Origin: an uncultured archaeon
Lineage (GTDB): Archaea; Asgardarchaeota; Thorarchaeia; Thorarchaeales; Thorarchaeaceae
NCBI GenBank assembly: GCA_964610875.1
Contig: CAZSWP010000014.1
Coordinates: 1 to 64,000 of the forward strand
Length of the DNA stretch: 64,000 bases
Direction: 5' to 3'
Position numbers and translations under genes: made by a program. Under the pieces are notes generated by a model that saw nothing but the letters and a program-made list of their open reading frames with translations, was not told where the DNA came from and ran no database searches. Positions 3-6,311 of the stretch are shown piece by piece (position 1 is the stretch's first letter; every line of letters begins with the position of its first letter).

Positions 3-824
3 TACCAGTTAATCAGCCAGGCAGAGGAATATTATGCCATACCCCGCGATATTTACCGTTATCTCGCAGGCAAAGATAACGAGGGATTAACATTCAGCGG
101 AACAAGTGACTACGATATAAAAGATCGATATTCTGCTTCAGACGATATGTATCATGAAGGGCATTCCATCAATGCTTTTCTCGGTTGGGAAGTGAACCCT
201 TCCCTGAAATTGGGAATGAAAGCAGGAAAATCTCGTATGCCTTTAGATGCTCGCGGTACATACTCAGCTGAGTTGAAGGATGAAGTTCGAATTGAACTTG
301 AAGAGATCGGTTTGATTGAGAAATCCGAGTATCCTGAAGTAAGCTCAGTTGATGTGAAAGAAATTCTATCGAGTATGGATTATGCTGTCATGGGAGATGA
401 TATTAAACATTCCTCTATCAAAAGCGACAAGATATCTGTAGGTGCTATAAGGGGTTTGAAAAATGGGTCTCTTGGCCATATCTTCGTTGGACTCATGACA
501 ACTCCAAGGATTGGACATGAGGCGCTATCAGTAATTTTGGAACCAAATCTAGCAGTCCGTCCAAGTAGCATCATGCTACCCACGCGAACAATCAAGTCTC
601 TAAGACAGGCTTCGCTATTCTATGGTCCAGTGCAATCCGGTGCTGGCAGAGCTTTTGCTAAGATGCTTCAAGAGAAGTTGATTCCGGATGAGTCGATTGA
701 CAAAGAGGTAATTATTCTTGCAATAGATATCAATCTCAACTATCGTAATAGAAGAGAGATTACAAGTTTTACCGAGAAAGCTATATACTCAGCACTTCGC
801 GAACTATGGGGGTATCCTAAATGA
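3..824 (+). CDS. Fae-like domain protein preceded by a DHDPS-family C-terminal remnant (5'-partial; frame open from window edge, first ATG at 147)
   Basis: GHEALSVILEPNLAVRPSSIMLPTRTIK...YGPVQSGAGRAFA...LIP matches the formaldehyde-activating enzyme core. LGMKAGKSRMPL...EVRIELEEIGLI aligns to MGIPVGHARKPL...ELRTCLEDLQLI of the downstream gene. The frame has no stop from nt 3. Confidence 0.7.
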   Translation, partial: YQLISQAEEYYAIPRDIYRYLAGKDNEGLTFSGTSDYDIKDRYSASDDMYHEGHSINAFLGWEVNPSLKLGMKAGKSRMPLDARGTYSAELKDEVRIELEEIGLIEKSEYPEVSSVDVKEILSSMDYAVMGDDIKHSSIKSDKISVGAIRGLKNGSLGHIFVGLMTTPRIGHEALSVILEPNLAVRPSSIMLPTRTIKSLRQASLFYGPVQSGAGRAFAKMLQEKLIPDESIDKEVIILAIDINLNYRNRREITSFTEKAIYSALRELWGYPK

Positions 825-2296
825 GTGAGTCGTTCAAATTCAAGGGCGTATATCCAGCATTAGTAACACCATTCAATGAAGACGGAGTTGACGAAAAGTT
901 ATTCAGAAATCTAATCGACTATGTCATTAAAACCGGTGCTACTGGAATCGTTCCCTGTGGCACAACAGGTGAATTCACAAGTATGCGTTTCGAAGAAAAA
1001 GTTGAAGCAATTCGCATTGCTTGTGATGCGGCTAAAGGGCGTGTCCCTGTCTTAGCAGGCACTGGGGCGCCACATACAAGAGATGCGATTATAATCACAA
1101 AGAGAGCCGCTGAGTTTGGCGCAGATGCCGCACTTGTTGTTTCACCTTACTTCCTCAAACCTTCAAACAAAGAAGTCTACGAACACTATCAGAAGGTTGC
1201 AAATAACTCTGATATTCCGATTTTTGCGTATAATATACCTCAAGTAACAGGAGTTCCTCTCCATTGGACTCTTATTGATGGCTTACAGCAAATTGATGGG
1301 ATTGCTGGTTTGAAAGATTCTAGTGGTGACCTTGTTAATCTCACCACTATTCTTGTTCGTCGTCCTGCGGAATTTCAAGTAGTAATCGGTCACGATGAAG
1401 TTGCACTACCTGCATTAGCCGCTGGCTGTGATGGAGCTATTTTGGCAAGTGCGAATATTTTTCCAGATCGATACATCAAGATGCAGAATGAGTTAGCTGA
1501 GGGTGATTTGAAAGAAGCAATGATTGTTCAAAGGAGCATTCAGAGAACAGTTAGGATCATTGTGAATAGGGGTGGAGGCATGGCAGTGAAAGCCGCTTTG
1601 AACATGATGGGAATACCTGTTGGTCATGCTCGTAAACCCCTTCTAGAGGGTGATTCGTTTACCTATGAAGACATTGACGAATTACGGACCTGTCTTGAGG
1701 ACCTCCAACTCATTCCACGTGGACCTGTAACTTTCAAAATGGGCGAAAAAGCAATCGTTGCTGAGGCCTATCCTAAAGCGGTTGGTCTTGTTCCTGATGT
1801 TGTGGAGGACTTGACACTTCTTCATGGCGAATCACTATGTGGTGGAGGCCAAGAGGTTGCTCATGTAGACTTAGTGATGGGAATCAGAGATGGTCCGTTA
1901 CAGGAAGCAGTTGAAAAAGCCGGAAAGATTGTCGAAGACTATCACTCATCAAATATCGTGAAAGACTTAGAGCCCGTAACTGTCTTTGCACCCACTGTGA
2001 CTATAACAAATGAGCGACACAAGAAGATGGTCTATGAAGTAGCTCAGAAAGCAGTTTCAGACGCAATAACAAGGTGCATCACCGACGGGATTCTTCCTGA
2101 AGAACTCCTTCCAGATATTGTCATAGCAGCAAATGTATTCGTACATCCAAATGCGGTAAATACTCGTCGGGTTCATATCAATAACTTCCGTGCTGTCCGT
2201 CATGCTATTCGTCGTGCAATTGAAGGACGACAGGAGACATCTGAGATTGTGGAACGGATCGAGTCTGCAAGACATCCCTTTGCTTATAATCCATAG
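821..2296 (+). CDS. DHDPS/NAL-family class I aldolase fused to a C-terminal formaldehyde-activating enzyme (Fae) domain
   Basis: PALVTPF, GTTGE, YNIP and Schiff-base Lys in GLKDSSG. C-terminal GESLCGGGQEVAHVDLVMG...AQKAVSDA...VFVHP...NFRAVRHAIRRA...HPF is typical of Fae. Overlaps the upstream stop. Confidence 0.88.
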   Translation: MSESFKFKGVYPALVTPFNEDGVDEKLFRNLIDYVIKTGATGIVPCGTTGEFTSMRFEEKVEAIRIACDAAKGRVPVLAGTGAPHTRDAIIITKRAAEFGADAALVVSPYFLKPSNKEVYEHYQKVANNSDIPIFAYNIPQVTGVPLHWTLIDGLQQIDGIAGLKDSSGDLVNLTTILVRRPAEFQVVIGHDEVALPALAAGCDGAILASANIFPDRYIKMQNELAEGDLKEAMIVQRSIQRTVRIIVNRGGGMAVKAALNMMGIPVGHARKPLLEGDSFTYEDIDELRTCLEDLQLIPRGPVTFKMGEKAIVAEAYPKAVGLVPDVVEDLTLLHGESLCGGGQEVAHVDLVMGIRDGPLQEAVEKAGKIVEDYHSSNIVKDLEPVTVFAPTVTITNERHKKMVYEVAQKAVSDAITRCITDGILPEELLPDIVIAANVFVHPNAVNTRRVHINNFRAVRHAIRRAIEGRQETSEIVERIESARHPFAYNP

Positions 2297-3080: not shown

Positions 3081-4217
3081 ATGAATCAAAAGCGAGTCCT
3101 TCAACTCCTGAAAGAACTAGTGAATACAAACTCCGAGAATCCACCTGGGAAAGAAGATGATGTAGCTAAAGTCTTGTGTGACCATATGGAAGCACATGGC
3201 ATTGGTTGTGTTTCTGTCGGCCCCTCGAAAAGACCCAATTTGATTTTTTCAACACACGAGGATGAAAAAGGACCATTGGTTTTTCATGGGCATATGGATA
3301 CAGTTCCAATAGGTGAATTGAGTGATTGGAGTCATAATCCCTTCGCAGCAGATGTGCATGATGGTAAATTGTATGGCCGCGGGTCATGCGATATGAAAGG
3401 TCCTGTAGCCGCTCTTACTGAAACAATGATTCAGTATAATGATGAGGGACACGAAACCCCGTTACTTCTGTTGTGTACATCAGATGAGGAGAGTGGTTGT
3501 TCTGGTGCTGAAGAAGTTGCTGCATCGGGAATTCTTGATGGTGTGAAATTCGGTGTTTGTGCAGAACCAACAAGTTTAGGCATCTTAGTCGGAGAGAAGG
3601 GGATGCTGTGGTCTCGTGTTATGGCCAAAGGAAAATCTGCTCATGGATCTAGGCCAGAGGAAGGCATCAATGCTATCTCTCTTTGTATAGATGCGTTGGA
3701 TTTACTTGTTGCTGATGATTATGAATATGAAGAAGATGCCCTTATGGGTGAGATGACAATAAATATCGGCATGATTGAAGGTGGAATCAAAATCAATGTT
3801 GTTCCATCTGAATGTCGTGTTCAACTTGACATGAGACTAGTCAAGGGTCAAACGCCAGATAATGTAATCAAGGAAATGCAGCAGAGGATAGTAGATGGAG
3901 AGCTATCTGATTTCGTGAGTATCGAATACATCCATGGCAAACCTGCAGTGTACACATCTCCTGATACTGAGATAGTAAAAATTGCTCAAAACGCAGTAGA
4001 GAGTGTCACAGGTCGGCTATCCGATCTTAAAGCTGCAACTTATGGCACAGATTGTTCAGTCTTACAACCCAAAATAGGTATTATGAATATTATATGTGGG
4101 CCTGGATCAATCGAACGAGCCCATCAGCCAGACGAGTACATTCGATTGAGTGAGTTATACCATGCTGTTGAGATATATAGTTTGATTGCCAAGCATTTTG
4201 ATTCATCTTTGAAATGA
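3081..4217 (+). CDS. M20 family metallopeptidase/deacylase (ArgE/DapE-like)
   Basis: HGHMDTVP, GRGSCDMKG, DEE, AEPT, AHGS and AHQPDE motifs are intact. Confidence 0.9.
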   Translation: MNQKRVLQLLKELVNTNSENPPGKEDDVAKVLCDHMEAHGIGCVSVGPSKRPNLIFSTHEDEKGPLVFHGHMDTVPIGELSDWSHNPFAADVHDGKLYGRGSCDMKGPVAALTETMIQYNDEGHETPLLLLCTSDEESGCSGAEEVAASGILDGVKFGVCAEPTSLGILVGEKGMLWSRVMAKGKSAHGSRPEEGINAISLCIDALDLLVADDYEYEEDALMGEMTINIGMIEGGIKINVVPSECRVQLDMRLVKGQTPDNVIKEMQQRIVDGELSDFVSIEYIHGKPAVYTSPDTEIVKIAQNAVESVTGRLSDLKAATYGTDCSVLQPKIGIMNIICGPGSIERAHQPDEYIRLSELYHAVEIYSLIAKHFDSSLK

Positions 4218-4233
4218 AAATTCGTGTCTATTG

Positions 4234-5019
4234 TCAGTCTTTCGTTCCTGATCGTTTCTTAGCAATCAAACAGGCAAATGCTCCAGCTCCTAAACCATTC
4301 CCAATATTTACAACAGCCAAACCTGGTGCACAGGATTGAAGCATCGATGCTAATGCAGTTTGCCCTTCTCCCCCAAAGCCATAACCTACAGGGATAGGAA
4401 GGCCAATAACAGGAATATCAATCAATGATGCCACAATTGTGGGGAGTGCTCCTTCCATTCCAGCGAGAACAATTACAGCATCAACATCTCTTTCAATAAT
4501 TTCTGAGATTGGGTCAACTAGTCTATGGATTCCAGCTACTCCTATATCATAAAACTTGATGGTTTCAACTCCTGTGACTTTAGCGATGAACTCGACCTCC
4601 TTAGCATATGGTACATCAGAAGTTCCAGCTGTTAGGATTGCAATTAGACCAGATTTCTCTGGAGGTGCCCAAGCATCCGATTGAATCAATATTGTGATAT
4701 GATTTTTTGAACCATCGGATTCTATTCTATAATTTCTAAACTCCTTCTCCAGAACCTTCAGAATCTTGTGATTTGCTCGCGTAATTAGTGCAAAACCATT
4801 GCTATGTAACATACCCTTTACTATCTCGACAATTTGTTCTGGGCTTTTTGTCTGAGCATAGATAACTTCCGGAATCCCACTGCGATGTGCTCGATCATGG
4901 TCCAGAACTGCAAAACCTCCTATGGATATTGCAGCACGACTTTTTATTATCTGTTCTGCATCTGCAACAGATACTTTGCCTGCTGCAACAGCCTTCAGTA
5001 TTTCTTTGATCGAGTTCAT
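4234..5019 (-). CDS. larB: Nickel-pincer cofactor biosynthesis protein LarB (AIR carboxylase-like)
   Basis: LDHDRAHRSGIPEVIYA, AGTSD, DIGVAGIHRL, AGMEGALP, PVGYG, MLQSCAPG, VVNIGNG. Confidence 0.92.
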   Translation of the reverse strand: MNSIKEILKAVAAGKVSVADAEQIIKSRAAISIGGFAVLDHDRAHRSGIPEVIYAQTKSPEQIVEIVKGMLHSNGFALITRANHKILKVLEKEFRNYRIESDGSKNHITILIQSDAWAPPEKSGLIAILTAGTSDVPYAKEVEFIAKVTGVETIKFYDIGVAGIHRLVDPISEIIERDVDAVIVLAGMEGALPTIVASLIDIPVIGLPIPVGYGFGGEGQTALASMLQSCAPGLAVVNIGNGLGAGAFACLIAKKRSGTKD

Positions 5020-5585: not shown

Positions 5586-6311
5586 ATGACTGAACTTTTG
5601 TATATGGGCGATAATTATGTGAAGGAATTTGATGCTGTAGTAACCAAAGTCGGTGATGATTATCTTACTCTTGATAAAACCGCTTTTTATCCAGAGGGTG
5701 GTGGCCAGTTTGGAGACAAAGGTTGGATTTCTGTAGATGATACTGAGGTCGAGGTAGATACAACAAAGCGGCAAAAAGGTGAGGTATGTCATATGGTAGA
5801 TGATACAACGCCTTTTGTTGTTGGAACAAAAGTCACTGGAAAACTTGATTGGGAACGTCGATATCGTTGTATGCGATTTCATACAGCCCAACATGTTCTA
5901 TCAAGACACCTTCAAATGAAATACAATTTAGTAACAGTTGGAAATCAAATCAAACCAGATAGGAGTCGAGCTGATTATTCCCCGCTAGAAAGCTTTGATG
6001 AAAGCATGAAAAAAGACGTTGAGCGGGCGGTAAATGCCCTAATTCAACAAGAGATGGATGTTAAAATATCATTTATGCCACGAAATGAAGCCATCGATTA
6101 TCTCAAAGAGAGAGGCTATCAGACACGATATCTTATGATGGTTCCTGAACATGTGAAGGAATTTAGAGTAATAGAGATGGAGAATTTTGATGCAGCTTCA
6201 TGCGCAGGCACACATGTTGCAAATACAAGTGAAATTCGTGGAATAAGATTAGGCAAATCAAAAAATGTGGGTGCTGGGAAACAAAGAATCTACTTTACAC
6301 TTGTTGATTAA
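5586..6311 (+). CDS. alaX: Alanyl-tRNA editing protein AlaX-M
   Basis: TAFYPEGGGQ, HTAQH and CAGTH zinc ligands; ~240 aa; SD aggtg. Confidence 0.92.
   Translation: MTELLYMGDNYVKEFDAVVTKVGDDYLTLDKTAFYPEGGGQFGDKGWISVDDTEVEVDTTKRQKGEVCHMVDDTTPFVVGTKVTGKLDWERRYRCMRFHTAQHVLSRHLQMKYNLVTVGNQIKPDRSRADYSPLESFDESMKKDVERAVNALIQQEMDVKISFMPRNEAIDYLKERGYQTRYLMMVPEHVKEFRVIEMENFDAASCAGTHVANTSEIRGIRLGKSKNVGAGKQRIYFTLVD

Follow-up and report, generated by a model that had tools for sequence, protein, structure and literature searches.

Formaldehyde-activating enzyme (Fae) condenses formaldehyde with tetrahydromethanopterin (H4MPT) in an active site situated between neighbouring subunits. The canonical enzyme, that of Methylorubrum extorquens (structures 1Y5Y and 1Y60; families PF08714 and TIGR03126), is a free-standing protein that forms homo-oligomers, and each of its chains has every motif. 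A fused form has also been described, Fae-Hps (NF009833; EC 4.2.1.147 / 4.1.2.43), in which an N-terminal Fae domain is joined to Hps, a formaldehyde-releasing/consuming C-C lyase with the orotidine monophosphate (OMP) decarboxylase fold. The fusion analysed here differs in that its Fae domain is C-terminal and its partner is a class I 2-oxoacid aldolase of the DHDPS (dihydrodipicolinate synthase) family. Two adjacent genes of this kind, named A and B, lie at the start of a stretch of 64,000 nucleotides from an uncultured member of the Thorarchaeota (the window). That stretch opens contig C14 (CAZSWP010000014.1) and covers its first 64 kb; the source assembly has 3.75 Mb and is 95% complete, and near-identical database proteins carry the label Candidatus Thorarchaeota. 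The reading that we tentatively favour is that A and B constitute one hetero-oligomeric enzyme with a composite Fae site, which would interconvert pyruvate plus methylene-H4MPT and 4-hydroxy-2-oxobutanoate and would be tied to homoserine.

Gene B (821-2296, + strand) is complete and codes for a protein of 491 amino acids, made of a DHDPS-family aldolase domain (836-1657), a linker of ~55 residues and an Fae domain (1826-2281). The matches to PF00701 (residues 6-279, 1.1e-73, 247.9 bits) and PF08714 (residues 336-487, 5.3e-30, 105 bits for a Pfam cut-off of 27) bear out the original prediction, made from the letters of the window, that this gene fuses a class I pyruvate-dependent aldolase to Fae. 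The upstream open frame (3-824, +) has its stop within the same four nucleotides as the start of B (ATGA, 821-824) and matches PF08714 at residues 149-266 (447-800; 3.3e-22, 79.6 bits, cut-off 27), that is, over positions 18-135 of the 159 of the profile. The same aldolase/Fae layout had been proposed for this upstream gene. It does apply from about nucleotide 216 onwards (216-824: the last ~30 residues of a DHDPS-family domain, followed by a linker and then by an Fae domain that is degenerate); the segment 3-215 is not aldolase, and the N-terminal part of A was located on another contig, C5.

Complementary Fae domains in A and B

The two Fae domains were aligned with 1Y5Y (B over residues 8-168, A over 37-137). 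The domain of B retains GE.L..G.EVAHVD, with GESL in its first part (His348 at nucleotide 1862, Asp350 at 1868), VFVHP (2135) and ARHPF (2273); its middle segment is shortened and diverged, and the PNL..KP and FGPAQ segments are missing. The domain of A retains GHEAL (513), ILEPNLAVRP (EPNLAVRP at 540), RQA (603) and YGPVQ (GPVQ at 624), and is without ~13 residues around the His, without VFxH and without the HPF tail. Each chain, homologous in fold to the M. extorquens enzyme, thus holds one half of what every canonical chain holds, and the two sets of motifs add up to a full Fae. The Fae-Hps model NF009833 matches over the Fae part alone (84.5 and 66.9 bits for a cut-off of 274).

The presence of five Fae motifs (GE.L..EVAH.D, PNL..KP, FGPAQ, VF.H and HPF) was then surveyed in 117 full-length copies of the fusion, drawn from 80 loci of named genomes and 20 of other Asgard families. 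All five occur in one chain in 29 out of 31 Bathyarchaeia proteins. In Thorarchaeota of other species, A (39-40 copies) carries EPNL..(K/R)P and GPxQ and no others, while B (~38-42 copies) carries AH.D and HPF, mostly also VFxHP, and neither PNL nor GPxQ; the A and B copies of Baldrarchaeia show the same split. Judged from these sequences, the complementary loss is systematic and not a matter of chance. What had been noticed in the window, namely a downstream Fae that keeps the EVAHVD His and lacks the PNL segment and an upstream Fae in the reverse condition, is upheld by both the alignments and the motif census.

The number of fusion genes per locus is one in 33 of 34 Bathyarchaeia and two in 43 of 47 Thorarchaeota, and in all 43 pairs the spacing between A and B lies between -13 and +6 nucleotides. 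Fae was also surveyed in 251 Asgard genomes that are at least 80% complete. In the family of the window (f1), Fae matches were found in 62 of 65 genomes; 59 of these 62 have exactly two weak matches, which are the pair, and canonical Fae was found in none. Several other Asgard families have a strong Fae match in a frame of 400-460 amino acids (Fae-Hps) and often also a second complete Fae in a frame of 495-527 amino acids (the single aldolase-Fae fusion); both proteins are present in Bathyarchaeia too. The check on co-occurrence that had been suggested for these two groups therefore places the pair in Thorarchaeota and Baldrarchaeia, and the single intact fusion in Bathyarchaeia and other Asgard families. 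In a quick maximum-likelihood tree, Baldrarchaeia A groups with Thorarchaeota A and Baldrarchaeia B with Thorarchaeota B, and the B clade is nested among intact single forms. Since the A and B copies of the two lineages group in this manner, the tree suggests one old duplication of a single fusion gene, followed by complementary loss. Mean pairwise identity over 40 species is 0.76 for the aldolase, 0.63 for the Fae and 0.41 for the linker of A, and 0.79 and 0.74 for the aldolase and Fae of B; both copies are under constraint.

The linker and Fae parts of A and B were modelled as a complex, using an alignment of 29 rows for each and three controls. The ipSAE score was 0.91, with 0.01 for the best of the three controls; in a benchmark, which applies only roughly because our own alignments were used, the mark is reached by 58 of the 80 solved complexes and by 2 of the 110 mismatched pairs. 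Contact agreement between runs was at least 88%, and the predicted local distance difference test (pLDDT) of the partners at least 87. In the numbering of the model, the interface comprises residues 46-50 (GESL), His59, Asp61 and 194-198 (ARHPF) on the B side and residues 82-90 (ILEPNLAVR) and 112-116 (GPVQ) on the A side. These are the motifs that each copy retained, and they stand face to face; the retained faces would then be those that meet in an Fae-type interface. Because B holds the His/Asp face and A the PNL/GPxQ face, a complete Fae site is predicted only at the B-to-A interface, and A and B probably form an obligate mixed complex.

Aldolase domains and the proposed reaction

The best solved relative of the aldolase domain of B is the DapA of M. 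jannaschii (2YXG, E 4.6e-50). As had been predicted for this domain, the catalytic Tyr and Lys are kept (Tyr137, nucleotide 1229; the Schiff-base Lys165, 1313) and the Arg of DapA is lost. GTTGE is also retained (Thr48, 962); the corresponding catalytic residues of DapA are Lys161, Tyr133 and Thr44/45. The position of Arg138 in DapA is occupied by Val142 in B (1244) and by Cys in A, and that of the cross-dimer Tyr107 by Phe111 in B (1151). The fragment of A on C5 carries GIKDSSG, YNIPQ and GTTGE. The Tyr107 region is asymmetric by group, with P(F/Y)Y in Bathyarchaeia, mostly P(Y/F)Y in Thorarchaeota A and PYF in Thorarchaeota B; the A copy of the source genome, unlike most Thorarchaeota A, reads PFF, with Phe-Phe at the Tyr106/107 position. 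All 117 full-length fusion copies have YN.PQ(C/V)T, none has the DapA Arg, and G(H/W/A)DE is likewise common to all; the two motifs are absent from characterised relatives. On the reading that we favour, each aldolase domain descends from archaeal DapA and has lost the arginine that holds aspartate semialdehyde. The Schiff-base Lys is retained in 83 of 84 Thorarchaeota copies. The sole exception is a B copy (L049:9158-10630, +) in which GMKDSS is replaced by GMNDSS, the Lys having become Asn.

The proposed mechanism would involve (i) two subunits, each carrying a 2-oxoacid aldolase domain of class I, with a Schiff-base lysine, (ii) an inter-subunit Fae site divided after duplication, in which the His/Asp face and the HPF tail of the C terminus would come from B and the face with PNL..(K/R)P and GPxQ from A, (iii) interconversion by the complex of pyruvate and methylene-H4MPT (+H2O) with 4-hydroxy-2-oxobutanoate and H4MPT, (iv) passage of formaldehyde from one of the two active sites to the other, in the manner of archaeal Fae-Hps, and (v) a connection of the keto acid to homoserine by transamination. 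The complex could run either way: one-carbon (C1) units could be assimilated into homoserine, or a keto acid derived from homoserine could be cleaved and the formaldehyde captured. The conversion of pyruvate and formaldehyde to 4-hydroxy-2-oxobutanoate and then to homoserine is established in engineered Escherichia coli (PMC8879981). Metabolic context was sought in five genomes: the source genome, two closed Thorarchaeota chromosomes, and one closed and one further Bathyarchaeia genome. Methenyl-H4MPT cyclohydrolase (Mch) is present in all five, so that H4MPT-bound C1 units should be available. Hps was not found in the Thorarchaeota genomes, which leaves the composite Fae site with no evident partner for formaldehyde other than the fused aldolase.

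An indirect link to C4 metabolism comes from a gene for a TIM-barrel protein of ~428 amino acids that belongs to no family. Copies are found at L060:7806-9086(-), at L107:7464-8747(+) and, in the source genome G000, at G000:C35:23681-24943 on the - strand, which is L116:9676-10953. The gene is the immediate neighbour of the single fusion in 27 Bathyarchaeia loci and in 12 loci of the Asgard family f9, and its product is 62-81% identical across Asgard and ~70% identical to the Bathyarchaeia copies. In Asgard families that lack the fusion (no Fae), the TIM-barrel gene is located at most 10 kb from a homoserine dehydrogenase gene in 27 genomes, and in the six such loci examined an operon is formed by the TIM-barrel gene at its head, a class I/II aminotransferase, homoserine dehydrogenase and an aldehyde:ferredoxin oxidoreductase. 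On account of these neighbourhoods, the fusion and the homoserine dehydrogenase module take alternative places beside one conserved gene, and the fusion is thereby linked, indirectly, to C4/homoserine metabolism through the common neighbour. The TIM-barrel protein has no Pfam or NCBIfam match, a feature search of the Atlas returned nothing for it, and its database relatives, at least 8000 of them, are all named 'hypothetical'. Its AlphaFold2 (AF2) model (pLDDT 66) gave weak Foldseek matches, with MTHFR first (E 7e-4, template modelling (TM) score 0.3-0.4), and a wider structure search with the same model gave generic TIM barrels alone (Z ~9). A PatB C-S lyase is also listed in the operon headed by the TIM-barrel gene in the fusion-less families.

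Homoserine dehydrogenase was counted by family, bearing in mind that related genomes are not independent and that the counts are suggestive only. It was found in 2 of 65 genomes of the family with the A/B pair (f1; 3 of 66 with the source genome), in 0 of 14 and 0 of 3 genomes of two families with the single fusion (f12 and f13), in 0 of 8 genomes of f25 (which has Fae matches, the fusion not being confirmed), and in 41 of 52 genomes of the families without Fae (f5, f21 and f14). A strict anticorrelation between fusion and homoserine dehydrogenase is rejected, as f9, a family with the single fusion, has the dehydrogenase in 31 of 61 genomes, many of them with both. In the two closed Thorarchaeota genomes (G001, CP070761.1; G002, CP070658.1), threonine synthase scored above its curated cut-off, and Asd, homoserine dehydrogenase and canonical homoserine kinase were not found, which leaves a gap before threonine synthase. 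A canonical homoserine kinase (ThrB) over the cut-off was found in none of the five genomes, so that a full homoserine-to-threonine route could be traced in none of them, and the neighbours of the ThrC genes are uninformative. A stronger form of the reading would make the pair a natural C1-assimilation route, by which the methylene of Wood-Ljungdahl methylene-H4MPT is added to pyruvate to give 4-hydroxy-2-oxobutanoate and then homoserine; in most Thorarchaeota it would take the place of aspartate kinase, Asd and homoserine dehydrogenase. This stronger form, which rests on the presence of homoserine dehydrogenase in only 3 of 66 genomes and on the failure to find Asd and homoserine dehydrogenase in the two closed genomes with threonine synthase, we regard as unlikely.

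Several observations weigh against the hetero-oligomeric aldolase-Fae enzyme proposed above. Both Fae domains score below the TIGR03126 cut-off of 118.05 bits (B 114.2, A 75.3). The score of the complex model may stem from the Fae homopentamer already solved (1Y5Y), in which case it reports likeness and not binding. The mixed complex of the original prediction is very probable in view of gene adjacency, conserved complementary motif loss and a controlled complex model, but a five-fold Fae ring cannot strictly alternate A and B. The GHDE that follows the Lys resembles the GYDE of sialic-acid lyase, in which case a larger hydroxylated aldehyde could be the substrate. The TIM-barrel gene has a phyletic profile unlike that of the fusion, being absent from f12 and f13 and present in f5 and f21, and no aminotransferase linked to the A/B pair was found in Thorarchaeota. 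The source genome possesses aspartate kinase, Asd, homoserine dehydrogenase and HcyBio; since this genome and many f9 genomes hold homoserine dehydrogenase together with the fusion, the enzyme is not a simple substitute for that pathway. Finally, heteromer, substrate, channelling and direction are all inferred by us. As to the source genome, HcyBio, a gene of 247 amino acids, Asd and aspartate kinase stand in a row (G000:C24:43610-48985, -) and homoserine dehydrogenase lies elsewhere (G000:C1:26273-27331, -). This set of genes, unusual in a family where homoserine dehydrogenase was found in 3 of 66 genomes, could be a lateral gain or contamination (estimated at 5.8%).

A heteromer with a composite Fae site may exist and its aldolase nevertheless act on a different substrate pair, for example by PanB-like hydroxymethyl transfer to 2-oxobutanoate or 2-oxoisovalerate, or by cleavage of another 4-hydroxy-2-oxoacid with the C1 fragment passing to H4MPT. 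Specificity is unreadable from sequence, neither YN.PQ(C/V)T nor G(H/W/A)DE, which all copies have, finds a counterpart among characterised relatives, and the fusion has a CitG-like neighbour in f12 and a class II aldolase-like TIM-barrel neighbour in f12, f13, f17 and Baldrarchaeia, both of which hint at other contexts. We nonetheless hold a different substrate pair to be improbable: the sole cross-phylum neighbour ties to homoserine dehydrogenase and C4 amino-acid metabolism, and the canonical PanB in the source genome (377 bits) leaves no gap in ketopantoate synthesis, for which reason PanB replacement was rejected as a candidate. It is also conceivable, albeit decidedly doubtful, that the Fae-derived domains of Thorarchaeota are non-catalytic and serve as oligomerisation or regulatory modules of an aldolase that deals with neither formaldehyde nor H4MPT. 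Each domain alone is without part of the canonical site, both fall short of TIGR03126 as given above, and the linker and Fae of A evolve faster than its aldolase (identities of 0.41 and 0.63 versus 0.76). Functionless decay, however, would not keep exactly complementary motifs in ~40 species and in Baldrarchaeia; moreover, the retained motifs lie in the modelled interface, and the intact single-gene relatives are good matches to the Fae equivalog model (223.2 bits for the Bathyarchaeia form).

That B is self-sufficient and A a decaying duplicate, with no functional heteromer, would fit with A being the more diverged copy, with the Phe-Phe of the source-genome A and with the failure of gene A to be assembled intact in that genome. 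This is very unlikely, given that A has an intact frame with Lys, Tyr and GTTGE in ~40 species and a mean aldolase identity of 76%, that A and B overlap or abut as is typical of coupled genes, and that a homomer of B would be without the PNL/GPxQ face. Lastly, the genes could be taken for DapA (4-hydroxy-tetrahydrodipicolinate synthase, EC 4.3.3.7) in lysine synthesis. Databases name both proteins DapA, the TIGR00674 dapA score is above the cut-off (229.9 versus 206.15 bits), the nearest solved relative is the M. jannaschii enzyme and no other DHDPS-family gene was found in the source genome. However, Val or Cys replaces the aspartate-semialdehyde Arg in every one of the 117 copies, DapB (DapB_C) was found in none of the five genomes, of which three are closed, and Asd was found in the source genome alone and is missing from the other four. 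Because Arg138 and the pathway context (DapB, Asd supply) both fail, we judge the pass of the TIGR00674 cut-off to be a mis-call. A role as DapA seems scarcely credible and, as far as sequence and genome context allow, is excluded, in line with the earlier view that the aldolase is probably not DapA. The hetero-oligomeric enzyme with a composite Fae site remains our tentative preference.

Contig start and neighbouring genes

The aldolase tail of A begins near nucleotide 216 (frame residues ~67-72 onwards), and the A-type match of the upstream frame is 58% identical to residues 257-464 of P0121. Residues 1-76 of the same frame (window 3-215) instead match, with 55% identity, the central part of an unrelated family of ~600 amino acids without a Pfam match (P0136 residues 156-231). 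This foreign fragment (1-215, +) is in frame with gene A, and a tblastn search of the source assembly found no other piece of the gene from which it derives. Another contig begins with the 268 residues that form the N terminus of A (G000:C5:3-809, -); they are 79% identical to residues 1-268 of P0121 and adjoin CutA1 as in closed relatives. The ends of C5 and C14 have 16 nucleotides in common, with one mismatch, and the junction falls at a G(I/M)KAGK microhomology. Positions 1-215 of the window are probably a chimeric contig end and no part of the aldolase-Fae gene.

Downstream of the pair lie an M20 peptidase (ArgE/DapE-like; 3081-4217, +), an AIRC-family gene (4234-5019, -) and an AlaX-like tRNA_SAD protein (5586-6311, +), an order shared with a closed Thorarchaeota genome and with most Thorarchaeota loci. 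These Thorarchaeota neighbours (two large proteins without Pfam match, CutA1, the M20 peptidase and AIRC) look like lineage synteny with no evident functional link, and no neighbour besides the fusion itself was found to be common to the Thorarchaeota and Bathyarchaeia loci.

Two further genes were observed next to the fusion elsewhere. One, of ~315 amino acids and without Pfam match, is located directly upstream of it in the Asgard families f12, f13 and f17, in Baldrarchaeia and in two Bathyarchaeia (L101:7804-8748(+) and L005:5619-6563(+)). The AF2 model of its product (pLDDT 80) is nearest to class II aldolases, e.g. YdjI and tagatose-bisphosphate aldolase (E 9e-9, TM ~0.5), and no homologue was found in the source genome. 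The other is a CitG-family gene (PF01874) that adjoins the single fusion in f12 (L101:10266-11246(-), with the same position in L102-L104 and L111). In methylotrophs, homologues of CitG belong to gene clusters linked to H4MPT.

Comparison with known systems

If the proposal is correct, the pair and its single-gene relatives would represent an unrecognised enzyme in the H4MPT-dependent C1 metabolism of Thorarchaeota, Lokiarchaeia-like Asgard and Bathyarchaeia, which are abundant sediment archaea. Its recognition would correct a widespread mis-annotation as DapA that distorts reconstructions of the lysine pathway, and would provide a natural enzyme for the condensation of pyruvate and formaldehyde, so far confined to synthetic methylotrophy. 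It would also offer a clean natural case in which duplicated genes came to share an inter-subunit active site between them, so that a former homomer became an obligate heteromer. Full-text literature searches found no paper describing a DHDPS-Fae fusion.

DapA (2YXG; TIGR00674) is the closest sequence relative of the aldolase domain and has the same catalytic Lys, Tyr and Thr-Thr residues. A and B differ from it in the loss of Arg138, in the Phe at the Tyr107 position of B, in the additional ~200 residues of linker and Fae and in belonging to genomes where DapB was not found. The proposed chemistry is that of the 4-hydroxy-2-oxobutanoate aldolase step in the synthetic homoserine cycle (PMC8879981), for which the promiscuous RhmA of E. 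coli is used. That aldolase belongs to class II, depends on a metal and acts on free formaldehyde in engineered cells, whereas A and B are natural, class I and, by prediction, coupled to H4MPT. Under the C1-assimilation reading the pair would be the natural counterpart of that cycle. PanB resembles the proposed enzyme in net reaction type, in that a C1 unit from a methylene-pterin is transferred to C3 of a 2-oxoacid, but its fold and mechanism are unrelated and it is encoded by a separate gene in the source genome.

Fae-Hps shares with A and B the fusion of Fae to a formaldehyde-releasing/consuming lyase in an H4MPT-using archaeon and the logic of formaldehyde capture on H4MPT. It differs in that its Fae site is not divided between two paralogous subunits, as it would be in Thorarchaeota. 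Many Asgard and Bathyarchaeia genomes contain both Fae-Hps and the single DHDPS-Fae fusion, and this co-occurrence points to differing roles. The class I aldolase, Fae and the Fae-Hps-like logic are thus known; new would be the sharing of an inter-subunit site between two paralogues, as well as the reaction that we propose.

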